Source: Candidatus Lustribacter sp.
GTDB taxonomy: Bacteria > Vulcanimicrobiota > Vulcanimicrobiia > Vulcanimicrobiales > Vulcanimicrobiaceae
Assembly: GCA_965277805.1 (NCBI GenBank)
Contig: OZ255842.1
Location: forward strand, 4,224,001-4,288,000
Direction: 5' to 3'
Length of the DNA: 64,000 bases
Part shown: one piece after another, positions 52,276-60,065 of the stretch
How positions within the stretch are numbered: the first letter of the stretch is position 1
Layout: each line of letters begins with the position of its first letter
Made by a program: the position numbers and the translations under genes
The notes under the pieces: model-generated
Told to the model about the DNA's origin: nothing
The model's input: the letters and a program-made list of their open reading frames with translations, nothing else
Database searches by the model: none

Positions 52276-53550
52276 ATGCTCTCTCACGCTGACAATGAAC
52301 GCCTCACCCGGGTTGGGCCCGGTACGCCGATGGGAACGCTCTTCCGGCGCTACTGGCTGCCGGCGCTCTTGGCCGAAGAGGTGCCCGAACCCGACGGCGC
52401 GCCGGTCCGCGTGCGGCTGCTCGGCGAAGACTTGGTCGCGTTTCGCGACAGCGCCGGCAAGGTTGGATTGATCTCGGCGTACTGCCCGCACCGGCGCGCA
52501 CCGATGTTCTTCGGGCGCAACGAAGAGTGCGGGCTGCGCTGCGTCTATCACGGCTGGAAATTCGACCGCAACGGCGCCTGTGTCGACATGCCGTCCGAAC
52601 CGCCGGATTCGCTGTTCAAGACGAAGGTCACGATCGATGCCTACCCGACCTGGGAAGGCGGCGGCATGATCTGGGCGTACCTCGGGCCGCCGGAGCTCAA
52701 GCCGGAACCGCCGGGTCACGAACTCGTGCGCACCGCGCCCGAGAACCGCTACGTCTCCAAATCGCTCGAGGACTGCAACTTCTTGCAGGCGCTCGAGGGC
52801 GGCATCGATCCGACGCACGCGACGATCATGCACAACGGCAACATCGGGGACCGCACGTTCCTCAACGACTACGACAAGCTCGTTGCCGAACTGAACCTCG
52901 ACCGCACGGATTACGGCTTCACCTACACCGGCATCCGGCCGCGCGGCGCGCACACCTGGGTGCGCGGTTATCACTGGATCATGCCGTCGTTCCACATGCG
53001 CGCCCGCTCCGAAGGCAACTTCGGCCGCAAAATAGATCACGACGAAATTCCAACAATCGACGGCCACATCTGGATTCCGATCGACGATACGCAAACGTGG
53101 GTCTACAATTTCGGCTACTCGCACGATCCCGCGCAGCAGCTCTCGCGCGAACAAGCTCACGTGATCGAAACGCGGCTCGGACGCGGCGATTATCTCGATG
53201 CGAACTACGTCTCGCGGCTCAATCGCTCGAACGATTACGGCATCGATCGTCAGCGTCAGAAAACGCAGTCGATGACCGGGATCGAGGGCATCAACACGCA
53301 AGACTTCGCGCTGCAAGAGGGCATGGGCACGATCGTCGATCGCTCCAAAGAGCATCTCGGCACGACCGATCGTGCGATCATTACGCTGCGTCAAATCTTG
53401 CTGGAATCGCTCGACGCGCTCGACCGCGGCGAAGACCTGCGCGCGATCGATCCGGCAACCTACCGCAACGTGCGCTCCATCGATCGCATGGTCGACAACA
53501 CCCTCGACTGGCGCCTCGCCACCAAAGAAGACTTCGTTGCACGATATTAG
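52276..53550 (+). CDS. Rieske non-heme iron oxygenase alpha subunit (phthalate 4,5-dioxygenase-like)
   Basis: N-terminal NE.LTRVGPGTPMG.LFRRYW.P; Rieske CPHR...CVYHGW; mononuclear site EGGIDPTH...H; QD.A.QE.MG.I.DRS.EHLG..D. Confidence 0.9.
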   Translation: MLSHADNERLTRVGPGTPMGTLFRRYWLPALLAEEVPEPDGAPVRVRLLGEDLVAFRDSAGKVGLISAYCPHRRAPMFFGRNEECGLRCVYHGWKFDRNGACVDMPSEPPDSLFKTKVTIDAYPTWEGGGMIWAYLGPPELKPEPPGHELVRTAPENRYVSKSLEDCNFLQALEGGIDPTHATIMHNGNIGDRTFLNDYDKLVAELNLDRTDYGFTYTGIRPRGAHTWVRGYHWIMPSFHMRARSEGNFGRKIDHDEIPTIDGHIWIPIDDTQTWVYNFGYSHDPAQQLSREQAHVIETRLGRGDYLDANYVSRLNRSNDYGIDRQRQKTQSMTGIEGINTQDFALQEGMGTIVDRSKEHLGTTDRAIITLRQILLESLDALDRGEDLRAIDPATYRNVRSIDRMVDNTLDWRLATKEDFVARY

Positions 53551-54526
53551 GGGAGACGCCACGCCGCTGCTTGCGGTCGCGATCGGCGATCCGTCGGGCG
53601 TCGGCACCGAAATCACCGTCAAGGCACTCGCCACCGGCGAGCCGCAGCGGCGCAGCCGCGTCATGCTGATCGGCAATCACGACGGCATCGTCGAGACCGC
53701 GCGCACGGCCGGCCTCGATCTACGGTTCGAGCGCGTCGCGGATGCGGCGCAGGCGGGCGCGTTGCCGGGTGCGGCGATCCCCGTCTACGACGACGGCGCG
53801 GTCACGCTGGGTGACTATACCGTCGGGCAGCCCAGCGCCGCCGGCGGCCGCGCCACGGCGGGCTGGATCGCGCGCAGCGTGGCGTGGGCGGAGGCGGGCG
53901 CGATCGACGGCTTCATCATCGGGCCGGTTGACAACAGCTCGTTCAAGCTGGCCGGCTTCGCCAAATCTCCGCCCGGCATGAACCCGGCCAACTCGTACCT
54001 GCTGCGGATGTCGGGCAAGCTGCGCTTCATTCCGCTGGGCGAGCACGTCATGATGCGCGACGTGCCGCCGATGGTCACCACGGCCAAGGTGCTCGAGGTC
54101 ATCACGCTGATCGGCAAGACCCTCACCGGCTGGGGCGTGTCCAATCCGCGTATCGCCGTGGCCGGGCTGAACCCGCATGCCGCGGGCAGCGAAGATGCCG
54201 AACAGATCGCCCCGGCGGTCGCCGCCGCTCAAGCCGCCGGTCTCGACGTCAAAGGCCCGCTCTCGCCCGATACCGTCTTCCGCCGGGCGCTCCACGGCGA
54301 GTTCGACGTGGTCGTGGCCATGTATCACGACCAGGGCCAGATCGCCATCAAGACGACGGGCTTGGAAGAGGCCTGCGCCATCTTCATCGGGCCGCCCTAC
54401 GTCCGGGTCGGCACGCCCCACGGCTCGGCCCTGGACATCGCCGGCCAGAACAAGGCCCAGTTCGGCACGATGCTGACCGCCCTGAACGCCGCCTCGTCGC
54501 TCGCCGCCGGCCTCGGCCTCTCGTAG
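53537..54526 (+). CDS. PdxA-family decarboxylating dehydrogenase
   Basis: GDPSGVG.E, AGLNPHA, GP.SPDTVF, MYHDQG, HGSALDIAG. Confidence 0.85.
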   Translation: MHDIRGDATPLLAVAIGDPSGVGTEITVKALATGEPQRRSRVMLIGNHDGIVETARTAGLDLRFERVADAAQAGALPGAAIPVYDDGAVTLGDYTVGQPSAAGGRATAGWIARSVAWAEAGAIDGFIIGPVDNSSFKLAGFAKSPPGMNPANSYLLRMSGKLRFIPLGEHVMMRDVPPMVTTAKVLEVITLIGKTLTGWGVSNPRIAVAGLNPHAAGSEDAEQIAPAVAAAQAAGLDVKGPLSPDTVFRRALHGEFDVVVAMYHDQGQIAIKTTGLEEACAIFIGPPYVRVGTPHGSALDIAGQNKAQFGTMLTALNAASSLAAGLGLS

Positions 54527-54568: not shown

Positions 54569-54665
54569 TGGGGCACTTCTTAGGGTCGCCCCACGGGGCT
54601 TGGAGGAAAGCCTAACTCGCCAATTAAACGCCCCTAACTATGAGCAGCCCGGCGAGTCCCCGTTC

Positions 54666-54878
54666 GTGATCGTCTGTATGTGCAATGCCCTGGGCGAGCG
54701 CCAAATCTGCGCCCAGCGCGATCGCGGCGTGGCCACCGCCCGCGACGTCTTCAAAGAGCTGCAGTGCGAGCCGCGTTGCGCGACCTGCGTCCCCGAAATC
54801 GAAGACATCTTGTCGGCGAAGGCGTTTCTGCCGGTCTATCAATCCTCGCCGAATTCGCCGGCCGCGGATTGCAGATAA
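54666..54878 (+). CDS. bfd: Bacterioferritin-associated [2Fe-2S] ferredoxin
   Basis: MIVCMCN...CATC (CxC...CxxC) pattern next to bfr. Confidence 0.85.
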   Translation: MIVCMCNALGERQICAQRDRGVATARDVFKELQCEPRCATCVPEIEDILSAKAFLPVYQSSPNSPAADCR

Positions 54879-55321
54879 TTCGGTTCGCCCATCTTTTGGG
54901 CCAGACCGAGTTGCGTTTCGAGATAGTCGATATGCTCTTCGGAGTCAACCAGTATCTTCGTCGCGATCTCCCGGCTGACGTAGTCTTTTTCGCGTTCGAA
55001 CAGCTCGATCGCGGCCGCCGTGTCGTTGCGCGCCACCGTCTCGAGCTTCAAATCCGCGCTCAGCGTTTCGAGCACGTTCTCGCCGATGTGCAGTTTCCCG
55101 AGGTCCTGAAAATTCGGCAGCCCGTCCAACAGCAGAATGCGTTCGGTGAGTTTGTCGGCATGTTTCATCTCGCCGATCGACTCGTGGTAGATCTTTTCGC
55201 CGAGCGCCGCAAAGCCCCAATGCTTGAGCAGCCGCGAGTGCAAGAAGTACTGGTTGATCGCGGTCAACTCGTTGTAGAGCATCTTGTTGAGCGCCGCGAT
55301 GATCTCCGGGGGTGCCTGCAT
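54839..55321 (-). CDS. bfr: Bacterioferritin
   Basis: ELTAINQYFLH, ESIGEMKHAD (heme Met), EEHIDYLE, NYLQ. Confidence 0.97.
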   Translation of the reverse strand: MQAPPEIIAALNKMLYNELTAINQYFLHSRLLKHWGFAALGEKIYHESIGEMKHADKLTERILLLDGLPNFQDLGKLHIGENVLETLSADLKLETVARNDTAAAIELFEREKDYVSREIATKILVDSEEHIDYLETQLGLAQKMGEPNYLQSAAGEFGED

Positions 55322-55371
55322 CTTGAGCCTCCGATTCCTGCGCCGACGCCCTTCGCGAAACGGGCGGCATA

Positions 55372-57252
55372 ATGCTCTGCGTCCGCCGCATCCTGATCGT
55401 CGCGTTTTTTATTCTATCCGCGTGTCTTGCGCACGCCGGCGCCGCCTTTGCCGACTTCGACAACGCACCGCCGCCGGGCATCAATCCCAATACAGTCGGT
55501 ATGCAGCCGCTCGTCGCGCCGTTGCCGGTCGCCACCGCGGCGCCGGGCGAGTCCCCGCTGCGCCCGCGCGAAGATGGTTCGTTCGATGCGATCCCGCTCG
55601 TGCAGGGCAATCAGAAAACGTTCACGCTCGTAGAACGCTCCGCGCCGTGGACGCTCAAGCCCGGACTGACCGTTCTCGCGACGACGTATAATGGCGTCGT
55701 TCCAGGGCCCGTGCTGCAGGTGAACGAGGGCGATCGCGTCGTCATCAATTACACCAACGCTTCGGACACGCCGGACACGATCCACCTGCACGGCATTCAC
55801 GAGATCCCGGTCTCGATGGACGGTGTCGGCGGCATCTCGCAACCGCTCGTGCAGCCGGGCGGCCACTACCAATACCGCTTTACCGCCGACACGCCCGGCA
55901 CGTTCATGTATCACACGCACGGCAACGAAGCGCAGCTCGATAAGGGACTCTACGGCGCAATCGTCGTGCTGCCGCGCCATCCGCGGCCCGAAGAAGCGAA
56001 TACGAAGCACGACTTCGTCGAAATGCTGACCGGCTGGCACATCCAGAGCACGGCGGAAAATCACTGGACGATCAACGGCAAAGAATATCCGGCGACGCAG
56101 CCGATGAACGTAAAAAAGGGCGAGCGCTTCCGCATCCGCTGGATCAGTTTGACCGCGGAAGACACGCACACGATGCACACGCACGGTCACTACCAAGTGA
56201 TCATCGCGCGCGATGCGCAACCGGTCGAGACGCACGACGTAATGGACACGGTGCCGCTCGCGCCGGGCCAGCGCGTCGACGTCGTCGTCACCGCCAACCA
56301 GCAGCCGGGCACGTGGCTCGTGCACTGCCACGTCATGGATCACATCGAAGACGCGGGCGGCATGCCGGCGGGCTTGATCACCGCGATCCAATATGCGGGC
56401 GCGCCCAATCTTCTAACGGCCATGGGCCCGGCGATGTCAGTCGGCATGACGATGCCGGCCGGGCCCAAACCGCTCGACTTCACGACGACCGTGATCCTCG
56501 GCCTGATCGCGGGCTTGACGATCTTCGTCGGCTTGCCGATCGCCCGCACGTCGAAGCTCTCGCCGTACAAAGTCGGCCTGCTCAACGCGCTCGCGATCGG
56601 CATCCTGCTCTACCTCGTCATCGAGATCGCGCAGAACGCGATCGGTCCGATCTCGCAAGCGCTCACGTCGTGGCACAACGGCGTCGGCAGCTTCCCCTAC
56701 GCGCTGCTGGCCGTCTTCGTTGCGGGTCTGCTGATCGGGCTCGTCGGGCTCGGCAGCTTCGCGACGATGCTCACGAAACGCGCTGCCAAACGCGCTGAAA
56801 ACCCGCTGATTCTCTCCGCGATCATCGCGATCGGCATCGGTGCGCACAACTTCGGCGAAGGCCTCGCCATCGGTGCATCTGCCGCATCCGGCGCGACGGC
56901 GATCGCGATCGGCTTGATCGTCGGCTTCGGGCTGCACAACGCAACCGAAGGCTTCGGCGTCGCGGCGCCGCTGATCGGCAAGTACGTGCCCAGCTGGACG
57001 CAAATCGGCCTTGCCGGCCTGATCGCGGGCGGACCGACGTTCCTCGGCACCGTGGTCGGCTACTCGTTCAACTCGCCGGTGCTCTCGGTGCTCTTCCTCT
57101 CGATCGCGATCGGCGCGCTGGTCTTCGTCATCGGCGAATTGTGGTCGGTGCTCAAACACACCGGCCTCACCGCGATGGCCACGACGTGCATGACGATCGG
57201 CTTCCTGATCGCGTTCGCGACCGAACTCTTTCTCGACATGCAAGGCGGTTAG
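55372..57252 (+). CDS. Two-domain multicopper oxidase fused to a ZIP-family metal transporter
   Basis: Signal peptide; Cu motifs IHLHG, YHTH, HTMHTHGH, HCHVMDH; then about 8 TM segments with ZIP motifs HNFGEG and HNATEG; single uninterrupted ORF. Confidence 0.88.
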   Translation: MLCVRRILIVAFFILSACLAHAGAAFADFDNAPPPGINPNTVGMQPLVAPLPVATAAPGESPLRPREDGSFDAIPLVQGNQKTFTLVERSAPWTLKPGLTVLATTYNGVVPGPVLQVNEGDRVVINYTNASDTPDTIHLHGIHEIPVSMDGVGGISQPLVQPGGHYQYRFTADTPGTFMYHTHGNEAQLDKGLYGAIVVLPRHPRPEEANTKHDFVEMLTGWHIQSTAENHWTINGKEYPATQPMNVKKGERFRIRWISLTAEDTHTMHTHGHYQVIIARDAQPVETHDVMDTVPLAPGQRVDVVVTANQQPGTWLVHCHVMDHIEDAGGMPAGLITAIQYAGAPNLLTAMGPAMSVGMTMPAGPKPLDFTTTVILGLIAGLTIFVGLPIARTSKLSPYKVGLLNALAIGILLYLVIEIAQNAIGPISQALTSWHNGVGSFPYALLAVFVAGLLIGLVGLGSFATMLTKRAAKRAENPLILSAIIAIGIGAHNFGEGLAIGASAASGATAIAIGLIVGFGLHNATEGFGVAAPLIGKYVPSWTQIGLAGLIAGGPTFLGTVVGYSFNSPVLSVLFLSIAIGALVFVIGELWSVLKHTGLTAMATTCMTIGFLIAFATELFLDMQGG

Positions 57253-57267
57253 CGCCGCCGCGCGCAC

Positions 57268-58617
57268 TCACTTCCCGATACAGAAGCGGGCGAAAATGCC
57301 GTCGAGGACCGCTTCGGTTGCAACGGCGCCGGTGATCTCGCCGAGCGCGGCGAGCGCGGCCAGCAGTTCGGGCGCGATGAGATCGAGCGCGTCGCCCAGG
57401 TCGAGCGTTTCGCGCGCGCGGGCTAGCGCTTCGCGGGCACGCGACACGGCGCCGGCCTGGCGCGCGGAGGCGAGGTGCGCGCGGGCGAGATCGATGCGTT
57501 CGGTGCCCCAGCCGGCGCGCGCGATCGCGCGGCGCAGCAGATCGAGTGTGGGCTCCGCGAGCACGCTGCCGTGCAGCGCGTCGGCCTCCGGGGCTTCGCG
57601 CGCGTCGTAGCCGGCGCGGCCGAGGTCGCTCTTGTTGAACAGCACCACGCGCGGACGCGTGCGCGTCGCCTCCAGCACCGCGATCGCATCCGCATCGAGA
57701 GGCTGCGCACCGTCGACCACCACTAGCGCCACCGCCGCGCCTTCCAGCGCGCGCCGGGCCCGCTCGATGCCGATCTGCTCGACCGCATCTTCGCTCGCGC
57801 GCATTCCGGCGGTGTCGAGGATGCGCACCGGCACGCCGTCGATGAAGAAGCGCTCCTCGATCACATCGCGCGTCGTGCCCGCCGTCGCCGCCACGATCGC
57901 GCGTTCTTCGCCGAGCAGCGCGTTGAGCAGCGACGACTTGCCCGCGTTGGGCGGGCCCACGATCGCAAGCGACAGGCCCTCGCGCACGAGCCGGCCGCGC
58001 TCCCAGTCCGCAACCAGCGCTGCGAGCGCCGCTTCGCACGCCGCGAGCCGCCCGTCGACGTCCGCGCGGCCGGGCTCGGGCACTTCGTCCGGATAGTCGA
58101 TCGCGCCGGCGAGTTCTTCCAGCACCGTCGCGAGCGGCGCGCTCACCGCGTCGATCGCGGTCCGCAAGCCGCCGGTCAGGTTCGCTTGCGCCGCCCGCGC
58201 GCCGGCCCGCGACTCGGCCTCGATCACGTCGGCAACCGCCTCGGCTGCGCTCAGGTCCAGCTTGCCGTTGAGAAATGCGCGGCGCGTGAATTCGCCCGGT
58301 CCGGCCGCGCGCGCGCCGGCGGCCAAGAGCGCGCGCAGCGTCTCGCGCGCGACCACCGGGCTGCCGTGCACGTGCAGTTCGACGATGTCTTCGCCCGTTA
58401 CGGTGCGTGGCGCGTCCATCGCGAGCGCCAGGCCCCGATCCAGCACGGCGCCGTCGACGTCGAGGATCTCGCCGTAGGTCGCAACGCGGTCGGCGAGCGG
58501 TGCGCGGCTGCGAAAAACGCGCGCCACGATCGTGCGCGCGTCGGGACCGCTACAGCGGACGATCGCGATCGCACCGCGCCCCGGCGGGGTCGCGATCGCC
58601 GCGATCGTCTCAGGCAC
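57268..58617 (-). CDS. mnmE: tRNA modification GTPase
   Basis: TIAAIATPPG, GEFTRRAFLNGK.DL, GPPNAGKSS, GTTRD, DTAG, FCIGK. Confidence 0.97.
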   Translation of the reverse strand: MPETIAAIATPPGRGAIAIVRCSGPDARTIVARVFRSRAPLADRVATYGEILDVDGAVLDRGLALAMDAPRTVTGEDIVELHVHGSPVVARETLRALLAAGARAAGPGEFTRRAFLNGKLDLSAAEAVADVIEAESRAGARAAQANLTGGLRTAIDAVSAPLATVLEELAGAIDYPDEVPEPGRADVDGRLAACEAALAALVADWERGRLVREGLSLAIVGPPNAGKSSLLNALLGEERAIVAATAGTTRDVIEERFFIDGVPVRILDTAGMRASEDAVEQIGIERARRALEGAAVALVVVDGAQPLDADAIAVLEATRTRPRVVLFNKSDLGRAGYDAREAPEADALHGSVLAEPTLDLLRRAIARAGWGTERIDLARAHLASARQAGAVSRAREALARARETLDLGDALDLIAPELLAALAALGEITGAVATEAVLDGIFARFCIGK

Positions 58618-58619
58618 TT

Positions 58620-59204
58620 TTACTTCGGAGAAACGACCAGCCGGCGATCGGGGTCGACGCCTTCCGATTCGGTCCGCACGACCGACGATTCCGATAGCGC
58701 GAGATGCACGATCTTGCGTTCGCTCGGCAACATCGGCTCGAGTTTGATCGCCTTGCCTTCGCGAATCACGCGCTCCAGCGTCGCAAGCGCGAGCGTCTTG
58801 AGCTGGTCCGCTTTACGCGCGCGATAGCCTTCGGCATCGATCGTGTAATAGCGCCGGTTGTTGCGCACGCCGGCGTTGAGGATGTTGTTGAAGATCAGGT
58901 TGAGCGCTTCGAGCGTGTTGCCGTTGCGGCCGATGAGATTCGCCAAGCGCGGCCCGCGAATTTCGAAGTACTCGCCTTCCGAACGCGCGATGTAGACGAT
59001 CGACACATCGTCGATGCCCATCTTCCCGAGCAGCTCTTCGAGCAGCGTGCGCGCAGGTTTCGCTTCGGCCGGCTCGACCGATGCCGCGGTCGTCGAACGC
59101 GGCGGCGCCGGCCGGCGATCGAACCGGCCGCCGCCGCCCGAGCGTCCGCGCCCGCGGTCGCCGTAGTCGCGCCGTCCGGAACCGTGATCGTTATCCATGC
59201 TCAA
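58620..59204 (-). CDS. jag: Jag/EloR/KhpB-like RNA-binding protein (KH + R3H)
   Basis: LIGRNGNTLEAL (KH), ERKIVH (R3H); lies between yidC and mnmE. Confidence 0.88.
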   Translation of the reverse strand: MSMDNDHGSGRRDYGDRGRGRSGGGGRFDRRPAPPRSTTAASVEPAEAKPARTLLEELLGKMGIDDVSIVYIARSEGEYFEIRGPRLANLIGRNGNTLEALNLIFNNILNAGVRNNRRYYTIDAEGYRARKADQLKTLALATLERVIREGKAIKLEPMLPSERKIVHLALSESSVVRTESEGVDPDRRLVVSPK

Positions 59205-59222: not shown

Positions 59223-60065
59223 TTAGCGTTTGCTGCGGCGCGATGCGCGGCCGCTGGTACTGCCGTTCTTACCGCCGGTGATCGCCGCGCGGTTCGAGGT
59301 TTTACCGTTGGTGAGAGGGGCCGCTTCGACCGTTTCGACGGCGGCTTTTTTCGGGCCGATCAAACCGTAGCGGCGATACATGTAGAACTGTTGCGCCATC
59401 GTCAGCACGTTGAGCATCAGCCAGTAGATCAACAGCGCCGATGCCCAGTGATAGCGCCAGCCGAAGTACGCGATCATCGCCGGCGAAACGATCGCCATGA
59501 TCTTCTGCGTCTGCGCTTGCTGCGGATCGCTCGACGGCGGACTGCCGTAACGCACGCTCAAGTACATCGATACGACGTAAAGCACGAGCAGCACGAAGTC
59601 CATTTCGCCGAGGTTGGCGGCGAGCACGCCGTGCGTGAGCTTGTCGATGCCGTCTTGCATCCACAGGAAGTGCGCGGCTTTGAATTCCGCGAGCTGCGAG
59701 TTGATGGCGTAGAACAATCCGAGCAAAATCGGCAACTGGATCAGCATCGGGAAGCAGCCGGCCAGCGGATTGACGCCGTGTTCTTTGTAGAGCGCCATCG
59801 TCGCGGCTTGCAGCTCTTGCGGCTTGCCCTTGAACTCGGCTTGGATCTTCTTGAGCAGCGGCTGCACTTTCTGCATTTCCGCCATCGACTTGAACTGCTG
59901 TTGCGCGAGCGGGAAGAGCGCGAGGCGCACGACCAGCGCCAGCAGCACCATGTCGAGTCCATACGACGGAACCACCGAGTGGATCGCTTTGAGCACGCCC
60001 AGCATCGCGTCGGTAACCGGCTGGAAAAAATTAAAGGCGAACAAGGGGGACTGGGAGCCTTTCAC
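59223..60065 (-). CDS. yidC: Membrane protein insertase YidC (short form)
   Basis: VRL.LFPL, LYKEHGVNPLAGCFPMLIQLPI, LLIYW...N....QQ. Start uncertain. Confidence 0.93.
   Translation of the reverse strand: MKGSQSPLFAFNFFQPVTDAMLGVLKAIHSVVPSYGLDMVLLALVVRLALFPLAQQQFKSMAEMQKVQPLLKKIQAEFKGKPQELQAATMALYKEHGVNPLAGCFPMLIQLPILLGLFYAINSQLAEFKAAHFLWMQDGIDKLTHGVLAANLGEMDFVLLVLYVVSMYLSVRYGSPPSSDPQQAQTQKIMAIVSPAMIAYFGWRYHWASALLIYWLMLNVLTMAQQFYMYRRYGLIGPKKAAVETVEAAPLTNGKTSNRAAITGGKNGSTSGRASRRSKR

Follow-up and report, generated by a model that had tools for sequence, protein, structure and literature searches.

The stretch of DNA analysed here (the window, 64,000 nucleotides) encodes at 55372..57252 of its forward strand one polypeptide that joins a periplasmic multicopper oxidase (MCO) to a ZIP permease, and this fusion is genuine and conserved. 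Its favoured but tentative reading, to which a probability of about 0.4 is given, is oxidase-coupled iron acquisition according to the logic of Fet3/Ftr1, with a ZIP replacing the FTR1 permease.

The gene is a single ORF of 626 amino acids plus stop, recognized by Pfam and NCBIfam models, by the homologue scan and by Logan contigs, and all the features of the protein given below lie on the forward strand. An earlier reading, made from the letters of the sequence only, had named four His motifs in one ORF of this length. Every motif could be placed in the translation (IHLHG at aa 137-141, YHTH at 180-183, HTMHTHGH at 266-273 and HCHVMDH at 318-324), and the layout described there, a signal peptide followed by two cupredoxin domains and about eight transmembrane (TM) segments, is confirmed. 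The signal peptide is of the Sec type (aa 1-27, 55372..55452) with a predicted cleavage between AFA and DFDN, the site being a probable one. The aligned N-termini of the orthologues display a hydrophobic core in all cases, followed by AxA, the cleavage point and DADE. Tat export and lipoprotein anchoring were both ruled out upon alignment, as the RR (twin-arginine) motif and the LSAC lipobox-like string of the signal peptide vary among orthologues. The first cupredoxin domain (Cu-oxidase_3, aa 97-202, 55660..55977, E 1.7e-33) holds HxH pairs at 138/140 and 181/183 and is devoid of a type-1 Cys. The second one (Cu-oxidase_2, aa 228-326, 56053..56349, E 5.1e-25) holds H266-x-x-H269-x-H271 and the type-1 site H318-C319-H320-x3-H324. 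Both exceed their Pfam gathering scores. A linker (aa 346-369, 56407..56478), predicted to form a short helix at 348-357 and containing a Met-rich string, AMGPAMSVGMTMPAG, at aa 350-364 (56419-56463), leads to the permease half (aa 370-626, 56479..57249), where 8 TM helices are predicted. The metal-site motifs of this half are HNFGEG in TM4 (aa 492-497, 56845..56862) and HNATEG in TM5 (aa 522-527, 56935..56952).

An assembly or frameshift artefact is ruled out by the conservation of the fusion in other genomes. The region of the linker (56400-56480) is in addition bridged with 0 differences by Logan contigs (X1 56056-57300, X2 55200-56973 and X3 56323-56630), which stem from three runs of one sample, perhaps the source of the assembly itself, and are therefore not independent evidence. 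Among 8000 scored sequences, 1393 homologues were obtained at E<=1e-3, and the best 120 of these 1393 measure 528-651 aa and carry the Pfam MCO domains. Both halves are contiguous in 98/201 genomes of the phylum, confined to three families of one class (f1 81/113, f2 1/3 and f3 15/15), and the other 18 families gave 0/69. The host of the window is a soil bacterium.

The oxidase half resembles the two-domain MCOs mgLAC (2zwn), the blue copper oxidase of Nitrosomonas europaea (3g5w) and SLAC. Its best match is 2zwn by sequence (E 1.7e-50) as well as by fold (Foldseek E 3e-27), and the top Foldseek matches are 2zwn, 3g5w and 3gdc. All eight His of the trinuclear site (HxH, HxH, HxxHxH and HCH) are present together with the type-1 His-Cys-His. 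The restriction of the type-1 Cys to domain 2, already noticed in the sequence-only reading, was verified (YHTH in domain 1, HCH in domain 2) and distinguishes the fusion from 2zwn and 3g5w, whose Cys is located in domain 1 (YHCH); we take this to be the SLAC-like 'type B' arrangement. When three copies of the MCO half were modelled together, an ipSAE of 0.95 was obtained versus 0.02 for the best control, the calibration mark of this score being reached by 20/30 solved pairs and 1/23 single chains. The run agreement amounted to at least 95% and the partner pLDDT to at least 92. In the predicted trimer, H138/H140 of one copy contact H271/H269 of the next copy. Trimeric two-domain MCOs have already been solved as structures, and the score therefore shows likeness to such complexes. 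The MCO half very probably forms a homotrimer according to these models, and the trinuclear Cu site would therefore arise between subunits, where domain 1 of each chain meets domain 2 of its neighbour. None of the solved two-domain MCOs is joined to a transporter, unlike the fusion.

The permease half scores lower against curated models. For the window protein alone, Pfam Zip covers aa 480-585 with 24.2 bits, under its gathering score of 35.1, and the NCBIfam ZupT model spans aa 371-612 with an E value of 2.4e-10, under its cut-off; the domain scan thus places the two oxidase domains above their thresholds and the ZIP domain below them. A profile was needed to reach a solved structure because the ZIP half alone, searched with phmmer, matched no ZIP in the PDB. 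Built from the ZIP half and 29 stand-alone relatives, this profile matched BbZIP (5tsa) with an E value of 3.2e-11, profile positions 8-255 corresponding to chain residues 60-305. In the AlphaFold2 model (pLDDT 90.5), 8 helices are found between aa 370 and 623. The N-terminus of the ZIP half lies outside, TM1 being preceded by a signal peptide and an exported MCO, and the K/R-rich loops after TM1 and TM3 appear to fit the positive-inside rule. The 8 TM helices and the HNxxE of TM4 (HNFGEG aligned to HNlpEG of BbZIP) are common to this half and to ZupT/BbZIP, the GufA-like members of the ZIP family. In TM5, by contrast, HNATEG is aligned to QDvpEG, giving HN in the fusion versus QD in BbZIP. 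The fusion further differs from both by a very short cytoplasmic TM3-TM4 loop and by the 340-residue oxidase on its N-terminus.

Conservation extends to both metal sites. In 32 sequences of 42-93% identity, the Cu ligands H138, H140, H181, H183, H266, H269, H271, H318, C319, H320 and H324 are invariant, and so are H492, N493, E496, H522, N523 and E526 of the ZIP half. Furthermore, two proteins (P0246 and P0249) display the reverse order, with the motifs of the same ZIP subfamily N-terminal and the MCO C-terminal. The invariance of both metal sites, together with the occurrence of these two families in either order of fusion, makes it very probable that the halves cooperate, as judged from these alignments. 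If the halves were independent, the ZIP might serve chiefly to hold the protein in the membrane or transport on its own account, while the MCO would resemble a laccase, with organic or humic compounds as its substrates at the cell surface. In keeping with this reading, the closest solved relatives bear the name laccase, and MCO-only relatives exist, namely G011 (a called 406-aa ORF inside a 442-aa open frame) and P0243 (a single C-terminal TM helix). The anchored form P0243 has however lost HCH, an anchor has no need of an invariant metal site, and the joining of the same families in both orders also speaks against independence, which is accordingly considered improbable. No MCO was found within 6 kb of the 80 closest stand-alone ZIP relatives (0/80 loci), and no bacterial unfused pair therefore backs the coupling. 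In two further proteins, P0358 and P0331, an EfeO-like identity of the extra domains was rejected, as they gave just a weak match to 8vuk (E 0.088) and no M75 domain.

An exact palindrome, TTAGG-N4-CCTAA, is found at the start of the gene in 33/40 distinct fusion loci of families f1 and f2, the window being left out of this count. Its end lies 0-35 nt upstream of the start codon, or else the palindrome overlaps the called start. The palindrome is rare, with 1-3 copies per genome in five genomes, three of which have one at the fusion gene. In family f3, the fusion gene belongs to an operon with a DtxR-family gene, located directly upstream on the same strand in 12/12 genomes examined, and the palindrome precedes this regulator gene in 4/4 loci read, once with a mismatch. 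An RNA hairpin was considered and rejected: its 5-bp stem would be weak, the regulator gene is preceded by the palindrome as well, and a second site lies about 22 bp upstream. A DNA operator is the preferred interpretation of these sequence patterns. Overlap with the gene start is usual for the operator of a metal-loaded repressor, and expression would therefore be expected at low metal.

The window's own copy departs from this scheme. The best nearby score of the operator matrix (PWM) is 8.5 versus a training minimum of 19.9, and in the surroundings of bfr and the fusion gene any classical box of the IdeR or Fur type has at least 7 mismatches of 19. The fusion gene is separated by a divergent spacer of 50 bp (55322..55371), devoid of TTAGG-N4-CCTAA, from the bacterioferritin gene bfr (54839..55321, reverse strand; TIGR00754, E 1.8e-63), whose 3' end is overlapped by a bfd-like [2Fe-2S] ORF (54600..54878, forward strand; Fer2_BFD, 30.2 bits versus a cut-off of 26). 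Coordinates and family models thus confirm the arrangement given in the sequence-only reading. The link to iron storage that had been drawn from it did not withstand comparison: bfr adjoins the fusion in this genome only, and bfr or bfd was found beside the fusion gene in 0/29 other loci within 1.5 kb and in 0/20 loci within 7 kb, a genome of the same genus included. The 15 f1/f2 loci read to 7 kb did not reveal any conserved neighbourhood in family f1. The head-to-head pair with bfr is what could suggest iron efflux or detoxification, in which the ZIP would run outward and the oxidase would trap Fe(II) as Fe(III), bfr being co-expressed at high iron, after the ferroportin/hephaestin logic. 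The coupling of an exporter with a ferroxidase is established in mammals. This adjacency is nevertheless missing from the other loci, the operator of the relatives predicts expression at low metal, and all the characterised ZIPs known to us move metal into the cytoplasm, so that efflux is regarded as highly improbable. Relevance to iron is nonetheless plausible on another ground, the DtxR/IdeR-like repressor and its operator, which go with the gene in relatives though not in the window.

The nature of this repressor bears on the identity of the metal. The f3 regulator displays Met/Cys/Glu/His at the IdeR primary-site positions in 4/4 copies, and the main DtxR-family homologues of f1 have Cys at the aligned IdeR primary-site position in 5/5 cases. 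In Eremiobacterota, the regulators linked to the fusion thus have Cys and, in f3 and in genus g4, Met as well; in genera g1 and g19, Glu and not Met is found at the M10 position. A different picture is given by the stand-alone ZIPs: a DtxR-like gene is present in the 6-kb flanks of 32/80 closest loci, and these 32 regulators mostly have E/D at the IdeR M10/C102 positions (ED 12, EE 3, HE 4), with Cys at C102 in 0/32. Two such ZIPs (L086 and L108), with an E/D-type regulator nearby, are preceded by the same palindrome, which therefore does not tell Fe from Mn. The fusion might be a Mn importer with a redox guard. Its ZIP would then import Mn(II), as MntR-linked ancestors probably had done, while the MCO would keep competing or toxic Fe(II) and Cu(I) out by oxidising them at the entrance, or would oxidise Mn itself. 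A guard of this kind would leave no paradox of an oxidase destroying the substrate of its ZIP. The E/D-type regulators and shared palindrome just mentioned agree with this reading, as does the best NCBIfam match of the f3 regulator, a Thermus-type MntR model (129 bits, far under the cut-off), and a precedent is provided by TmpA, reported in PMC8844249 as a bacterial ZIP importing Mn. On the other hand, the Cys and Met of the fusion-tied regulators are those of the Fe-sensing IdeR/DtxR, a canonical D/E-type MntR-like paralogue coexists as a separate gene in one genome (G177), and Mn-related genes were not found at the other palindrome sites. Import of Mn is on balance unlikely. One of these other sites precedes a gene for a Cyc2-like cytochrome-porin in three genomes (G000, G145 and G143), and the remaining PWM matches in G000 are weak and located beside unrelated or unknown genes.

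The regulatory context also renders less favoured the chemistry preferred in the sequence-only reading, where the oxidation of Cu(I) to Cu(II) would feed the ZIP. In its broader form, Cu acquisition would proceed in this manner or through a ZIP supplying the Cu of its own oxidase. A Sec-exported MCO has to obtain Cu in the periplasm, and two conserved Met are carried, according to the alignment and the AlphaFold2 model, by a short helix directly ahead of TM1. The Met-rich linker announced in the sequence-only reading is indeed present as a string, yet most of its Met positions vary: M351 is found in at least 90% of the sequences, M355 is invariant, and no other Met is kept. Moreover, 20 fusion loci examined to 7 kb do not contain any cop/cus/csoR-type gene, and the repressors at hand belong to the DtxR family, of which we know of no Cu-sensing member. 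An archaeal MCO1 and its ZIP are mildly up-regulated under Cu limitation in the data excerpted from PMC7785015, a point in favour of Cu. Taking both sides together, Cu acquisition is rated as quite unlikely.

Oxidase-coupled iron uptake can be pictured as follows. The ZIP half would derive from an old ZIP module, present in several phyla under DtxR-family repressors, and within a single class of Eremiobacterota its outward-facing N-terminus would have acquired an MCO, the accompanying repressor having IdeR-like Cys, and often Met, as putative metal ligands. The fusion would be made under iron scarcity. Sec export would place the two-domain MCO in the periplasm as a trimer with an inter-subunit trinuclear site, tethered by a linker of about 25 residues to the ZupT/GufA-like ZIP. 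The type-1 Cu of the tethered MCO would then oxidise periplasmic Fe(II), and the oxidised iron might be passed straight to the ZIP beneath it. The architecture, its conservation, the topology and, among relatives, the association with operator and regulator are observed; which metal is moved, in which direction, and its passage in oxidised form to the ZIP half are inferred. A reliable alignment of the MCO half to the substrate residues of Fet3p was not found, and no residue was assigned to a ferroxidase substrate site. ZIPs carry divalent metals, and the oxidation of Fe(II) would remove the known ZIP substrate; we know of no precedent for the transport of Fe(III) by a ZIP. The absence of the operator from the window copy and the mostly E/D-type, Mn-like regulators beside stand-alone ZIPs likewise count against iron. 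A more specific and doubtful proposal is that the ZIP takes its metal, perhaps Fe(III), from a covalent trimeric ferroxidase under IdeR-like control shared with the Cyc2-like cytochrome-porin. If true, it would extend oxidase-permease uptake for the first time to a permease outside the FTR1 type, and would amount to an iron redox relay across two membranes in Eremiobacterota.

Among known systems, Fet3p/Ftr1p of yeast would be the possible counterpart of the fusion, with an extracytoplasmic Cu oxidase coupled to a permease and iron-linked expression, and Fet3p (1zpu) itself appears at rank 17 among the structures matching the MCO half in the Foldseek search. EfeUOB and FtrABCD are bacterial systems of oxidase-dependent Fe(II) uptake. 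To our knowledge, oxidase-permease coupling in high-affinity iron uptake is known with FTR1-type permeases only. The permeases of these three systems are of this type, with REXXE motifs, whereas the fusion employs a ZIP with HNxxE; Fet3p is in addition a three-domain monomer, in contrast to a covalently coupled two-domain MCO predicted to be trimeric. No FTR1 domain was found in the fusion protein, whose membrane half is a ZIP, and the fusion is therefore a possible functional analogue and not a member of the Fet3/Ftr1 type. ZIP transporters are seen as dimers, and a threefold-symmetric oxidase mounted on such a family constitutes a structural puzzle. As a Rosetta stone, the covalent fusion, class-wide and also found in reverse order, is evidence for a capacity of MCOs and ZIPs to act jointly, and it offers a single-gene construct for testing their coupling. 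Related questions are raised elsewhere: the permease partner of a Fet3-like ferroxidase devoid of FTR1 is stated to be open in a passage on Drosophila Mco4 (PMC12218971), and in Paracoccidioides, which has no Ftr1 according to the excerpted text of PMC4585334, ZIP genes rise under iron deprivation.

No description of an MCO-ZIP fusion was found in the literature, and the statement of the sequence-only reading that none has been characterised holds to that extent; the fusion is apparently undescribed so far. What that statement had overlooked is the unfused MCO1 and ZIP pair already described in ammonia-oxidising archaea, which is the closest published analogue. As in the fusion, a two-domain MCO is there genetically linked to a ZIP (Kerou 2016 as cited; passages of PMC7785015 and PMC5817080), and a table in PMC5817080 lists 'MCO1+ZIP' among the genomic traits of ammonia oxidisers. 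The pair mildly up-regulated under Cu limitation is that of N. viennensis, where MCO1 lies beside the ZIP permease gene, and the oxidation of Cu followed by its import has been proposed for the two, unvalidated in the passage concerned (PMC7785015). The two arrangements, likened here by their description in these excerpts, differ in that the archaeal genes are separate, adjacent and discussed for Cu, whereas the bacterial fusion is a single polypeptide associated with a DtxR/IdeR-like repressor.

The gene at 55372-57252 (+) encodes 626 aa, and the sequence-only reading, which had described a multicopper oxidase (MCO) joined to a ZIP permease in one frame, is borne out: a single ORF is listed there and each quoted motif was found at its given position. 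In Pfam searches the oxidase half is clear, with Cu-oxidase_3 at residues 97-202 (E 1.7e-33) and Cu-oxidase_2 at residues 228-326 (E 5.1e-25), whereas Zip is matched at residues 480-585 only below threshold (24.2 bits; gathering score 35.1). The NCBIfam model ZupT covers residues 371-612 (E 2.4e-10, under the model's cut-off). An AlphaFold2 model of the full-length protein, built on an 81-row alignment (pLDDT 90.5, pTM 0.75), displays eight helices at residues 370-623 and a short linker helix at 348-357. No ZIP in the PDB was matched by the ZIP half searched alone; a profile of this half and 29 stand-alone relatives matches BbZIP almost from end to end (E 3.2e-11), with HNFGEG of TM4 aligned to HNlpEG, while HNATEG of TM5 is faced by QDvpEG. 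The signal peptide, the exported oxidase and the eight helices together give a ZIP topology with the N-terminus outside, as had been proposed, and the protein belongs both to the two-domain MCOs and to the ZIP family. The orthologues start with Sec signal peptides of ordinary type, ending in AxA directly before DADE. Neither a twin-arginine motif for Tat export nor the LSAC string of the window protein, considered as a lipoprotein signal, is conserved among them. At the predicted mature N-terminus an acidic, DADE-like tetrapeptide is conserved, and so is a GxQPLxGxIPxATPAPGES segment between it and the first cupredoxin domain (loci L005-L032 and others).

The architecture is real and conserved. 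A search of 5.8 billion proteins yielded 1393 homologues at E<=1e-3 among 8000 scored; the best 120 of them measure 528-651 aa, come from contigs as long as 3.9 Mb and bear the source names Candidatus Eremiobacteraeota, Cybelea, Lustribacter or Vulcanimicrobiaceae, and the protein Atlas cluster of the query is labelled Vulcanimicrobiota. Both halves are contiguous in 98 of 201 genomes of the phylum, as a single frame in 94 (cut by contig ends in G067 and G129), as two adjacent frames in three (G161, G173, G134) and over two contigs in one (G087). The unpublished genomes G178 and G128 are included, and the conclusion is independent of both. Contiguous halves occur in three families of one class, f1 (81/113), f2 (1/3) and f3 (15/15); the fusion was found in none of 69 genomes from the other 18 families, where just MCO-like matches at 32-40% identity appear. 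Across the linker, Logan contigs from three runs of one sample, which may be the assembly's source, span the junction without difference. Among 32 aligned fusions (42-93% identity) the eleven Cu ligands, H273 and the ZIP residues H492/N493/E496 and H522/N523/E526 are invariant. The Met-rich linker noted from the sequence is retained in part: M355 is invariant and M351 is present in at least 90%, but the other Met positions are not kept.

When 1.84 billion cluster representatives were scanned exhaustively, only two other full-length proteins of the same order (P0241 and P0242) came up, together with two of reverse order, ZIP first and MCO last, both singletons from short contigs: P0246 (667 aa), which retains HNFSEG/HNATEG and HCH in MCO domain 2, and P0249 (620 aa), which displays QCH. 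What looks like a second kind of fusion between a ZIP and a redox domain is suggested by the metagenome proteins P0358 and P0331 (593 aa each), in which a ZIP of the same subfamily carries a C-terminal cupredoxin-like domain (Pfam Cupredoxin_1, E 7.9e-6; weak match, E 0.088, to the EfeO-type cupredoxin 8vuk) and a helical domain of about 240 aa. In P0285 (659 aa), another fusion of an MCO with a membrane protein, a DUF4396 membrane domain is joined to a two-domain MCO. MCO-only relatives at 52-56% identity are P0243 (392 aa) and G011:C1:1898924-1899952 (locus L049); in P0243 the HCH motif is gone and a lone TM helix closes the chain, so that it may have arisen from the fusion by decay or re-purposing.

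The closest solved relatives of the oxidase half are the two-domain MCOs 2zwn (E 1.7e-50) and 3g5w (E 2.8e-44), which are also its top fold matches. These enzymes carry HCH with the type-1 Cys in domain 1, whereas the window protein has YHTH there and an Asp at the aligned type-1 His position (PDTIHLHG); in domain 2 its HCHVMDH is set against HDH of 2zwn. The type-1 Cys is accordingly confined to domain 2, in agreement with the sequence-only reading, and the layout is the SLAC-like 'type B' of two-domain MCO nomenclature, yet the sequence is nearest to 'type C' enzymes. Three copies of residues 60-350 are predicted to form a ring with an ipSAE of 0.95 against 0.02 for the best control (the calibration mark being reached by 20/30 solved pairs and 1/23 single chains), at least 95% contact agreement between runs and partner pLDDT of at least 92; since trimeric two-domain MCOs have already been solved, this pass indicates likeness and not binding. 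In the predicted trimer H138/H140 of one chain contact H271/H269 of the next, forming an inter-subunit trinuclear site.

The gene neighbourhood was less constant than the fusion. In the window, bfr (54839-55321, -; TIGR00754, E 1.8e-63) does lie 50 bp from the fusion gene with a bfd-like ORF (54600-54878, +) beyond. This linkage is not conserved: it is absent from all 29 further fusion loci examined over 1.5 kb, the same-genus genome among them, and from all 20 examined over 7 kb, and is incidental. Upstream of bfd, a Rieske/LigXa-like oxygenase (52276-53550, +) and a PdxA-family dehydrogenase (53372-54526, +; both Pfam) appear unrelated to the fusion. On the other side lie mnmE (57268-58617, -; Pfam) and ORFs at 58620-59204 (-) and 59223-60065 (-), presumably jag and yidC; the order mnmE-jag-yidC is usually met near the chromosomal replication origin. 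No conserved neighbour was found in f1 loci read to 7 kb. In f3, a DtxR-family gene (Fe_dep_repress, Fe_dep_repr_C and FeoA domains) stands directly upstream on the same strand in 12/12 genomes examined (G128, G067 and G087 left out), either sharing 4 nt with the fusion gene or lying a few bases away.

An operator accompanies the gene in relatives. The exact palindrome TTAGG-N4-CCTAA, whose arms are those of the classical IdeR/DtxR box at a spacing 5 bp shorter, lies with its end 0-35 nt ahead of the start codon or across the called start in 33 of 40 distinct f1/f2 loci, the window excluded, with a half-palindrome about 22 bp further upstream; L038 and L051 carry versions with one mismatch. 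Five genomes contain 1-3 exact copies each (reversed control 0-2), and in G177, G097 and G143 one of the sites falls at the fusion gene. In f3 the palindrome precedes the regulator gene in 4/4 loci read (one mismatch in L043). The window's spacer has none (its highest PWM score is 8.5, the lowest of the training sites 19.9), neither an IdeR-like nor a Fur-like box of the classical kind was found near its fusion gene, and the palindrome of the same-genus genome looks disrupted. Among lower PWM matches a second recurrent palindrome, of the form TTCGGCATGCCGAA, occurs several times in the window's genome outside the window (for example at C1:672165, 2094100, 2195898 and 2203935) and may be another regulator's operator.

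In an alignment to the IdeR structures 7b24 and 1fx7, the positions of the IdeR primary metal site (M10, C102, E105 and H106) hold Met, Cys, Glu and His in 4/4 copies of the f3 regulator; the ancillary-site His residues are replaced. The main f1 homologues have Cys at C102 in 5/5 and, at M10, Met in G177 and G097 and Glu in G143, G145 and the window's genome; G177 holds a further paralogue whose ligand pattern, D/E, is that of the Mn sensor MntR. Among the 80 closest stand-alone ZIPs, Chloroflexota, Actinomycetota, Dormibacterota, Patescibacteria and other groups are represented. A DtxR-like gene flanks 32 of these loci, 7 have the exact palindrome no more than about 100 nt upstream of the ZIP gene, and an MCO within 6 kb was found at none of the 80. 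None of the 32 regulators has Cys at C102, and most are of E/D type. The ZIP half thus derives from an ancient DtxR-ZIP module that was probably Mn-responsive; in Eremiobacteria this module acquired the oxidase, and its regulator acquired IdeR-like ligands. These ligands fit a shift towards iron, unproven because E/E-type regulators share the operator at stand-alone loci L086 and L108. Given such an ancestry, the ZIP might still import Mn, the attached oxidase clearing competing Fe(II)/Cu(I); beside the Cys-bearing regulators of the fusion families this seems rather unlikely. That the halves of the fusion, both with invariant residues, are functionally independent is quite improbable.

In the window's genome the sole other strong operator site (G000:C1:367481) precedes a secreted-protein gene (G000:C1:365.3-367.5 kb; locus L053 1821-2999, -), and its orthologues (L054, L056) likewise lie behind sites in G145 and G143. 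These proteins (371-393 aa) have one N-terminal CxxCH motif and an aromatic C-terminal residue, and are matched by no Pfam or NCBIfam model. PMC13741234 lists the same features for Cyc2, a cytochrome-porin that oxidises Fe(II), and PMC8357290 reports a Cyc2-like gene from an Eremiobacterota MAG; the secreted protein may be a cytochrome-porin of Cyc2 type controlled by the same repressor.

Because the operator lies over the gene start, the unit would be expressed when the sensed metal is scarce; a role in metal efflux and trapping is, beside this, highly improbable. Iron would be the metal, to judge by the Cys/Met ligands of the regulator, the Cyc2-like protein behind the same operator and the neighbouring bfr, this last confined to the one genome; the oxidase would act on the metal being transported. 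The logic of Fet3/Ftr1 with a ZIP as permease is the most economical model, to which we assign a probability of about 0.4; its chemical weak point is that ZIPs are known as carriers of divalent ions.

The MCO-ZIP architecture is apparently undescribed: a full-text literature search, in which subscription journals were thinly covered, found no published or characterised fusion, as had been supposed. The nearest case is a gene pair, MCO1 and an adjacent ZIP permease in ammonia-oxidising archaea, for which PMC7785015 proposes, without validation, Cu(I) oxidation for uptake; 'MCO1+ZIP' is also tabulated for ammonia oxidisers in PMC5817080. An equivalent scheme here, in which the MCO oxidises Cu(I) and the ZIP imports Cu(II), would suit a divalent-ion permease and is unlikely beside the iron-type regulator ligands. 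The fusion lacks an FTR1 domain and is therefore not a member of the Fet3/Ftr1 family. By analogy it may work like one, and it extends the oxidase-permease principle in a new form.
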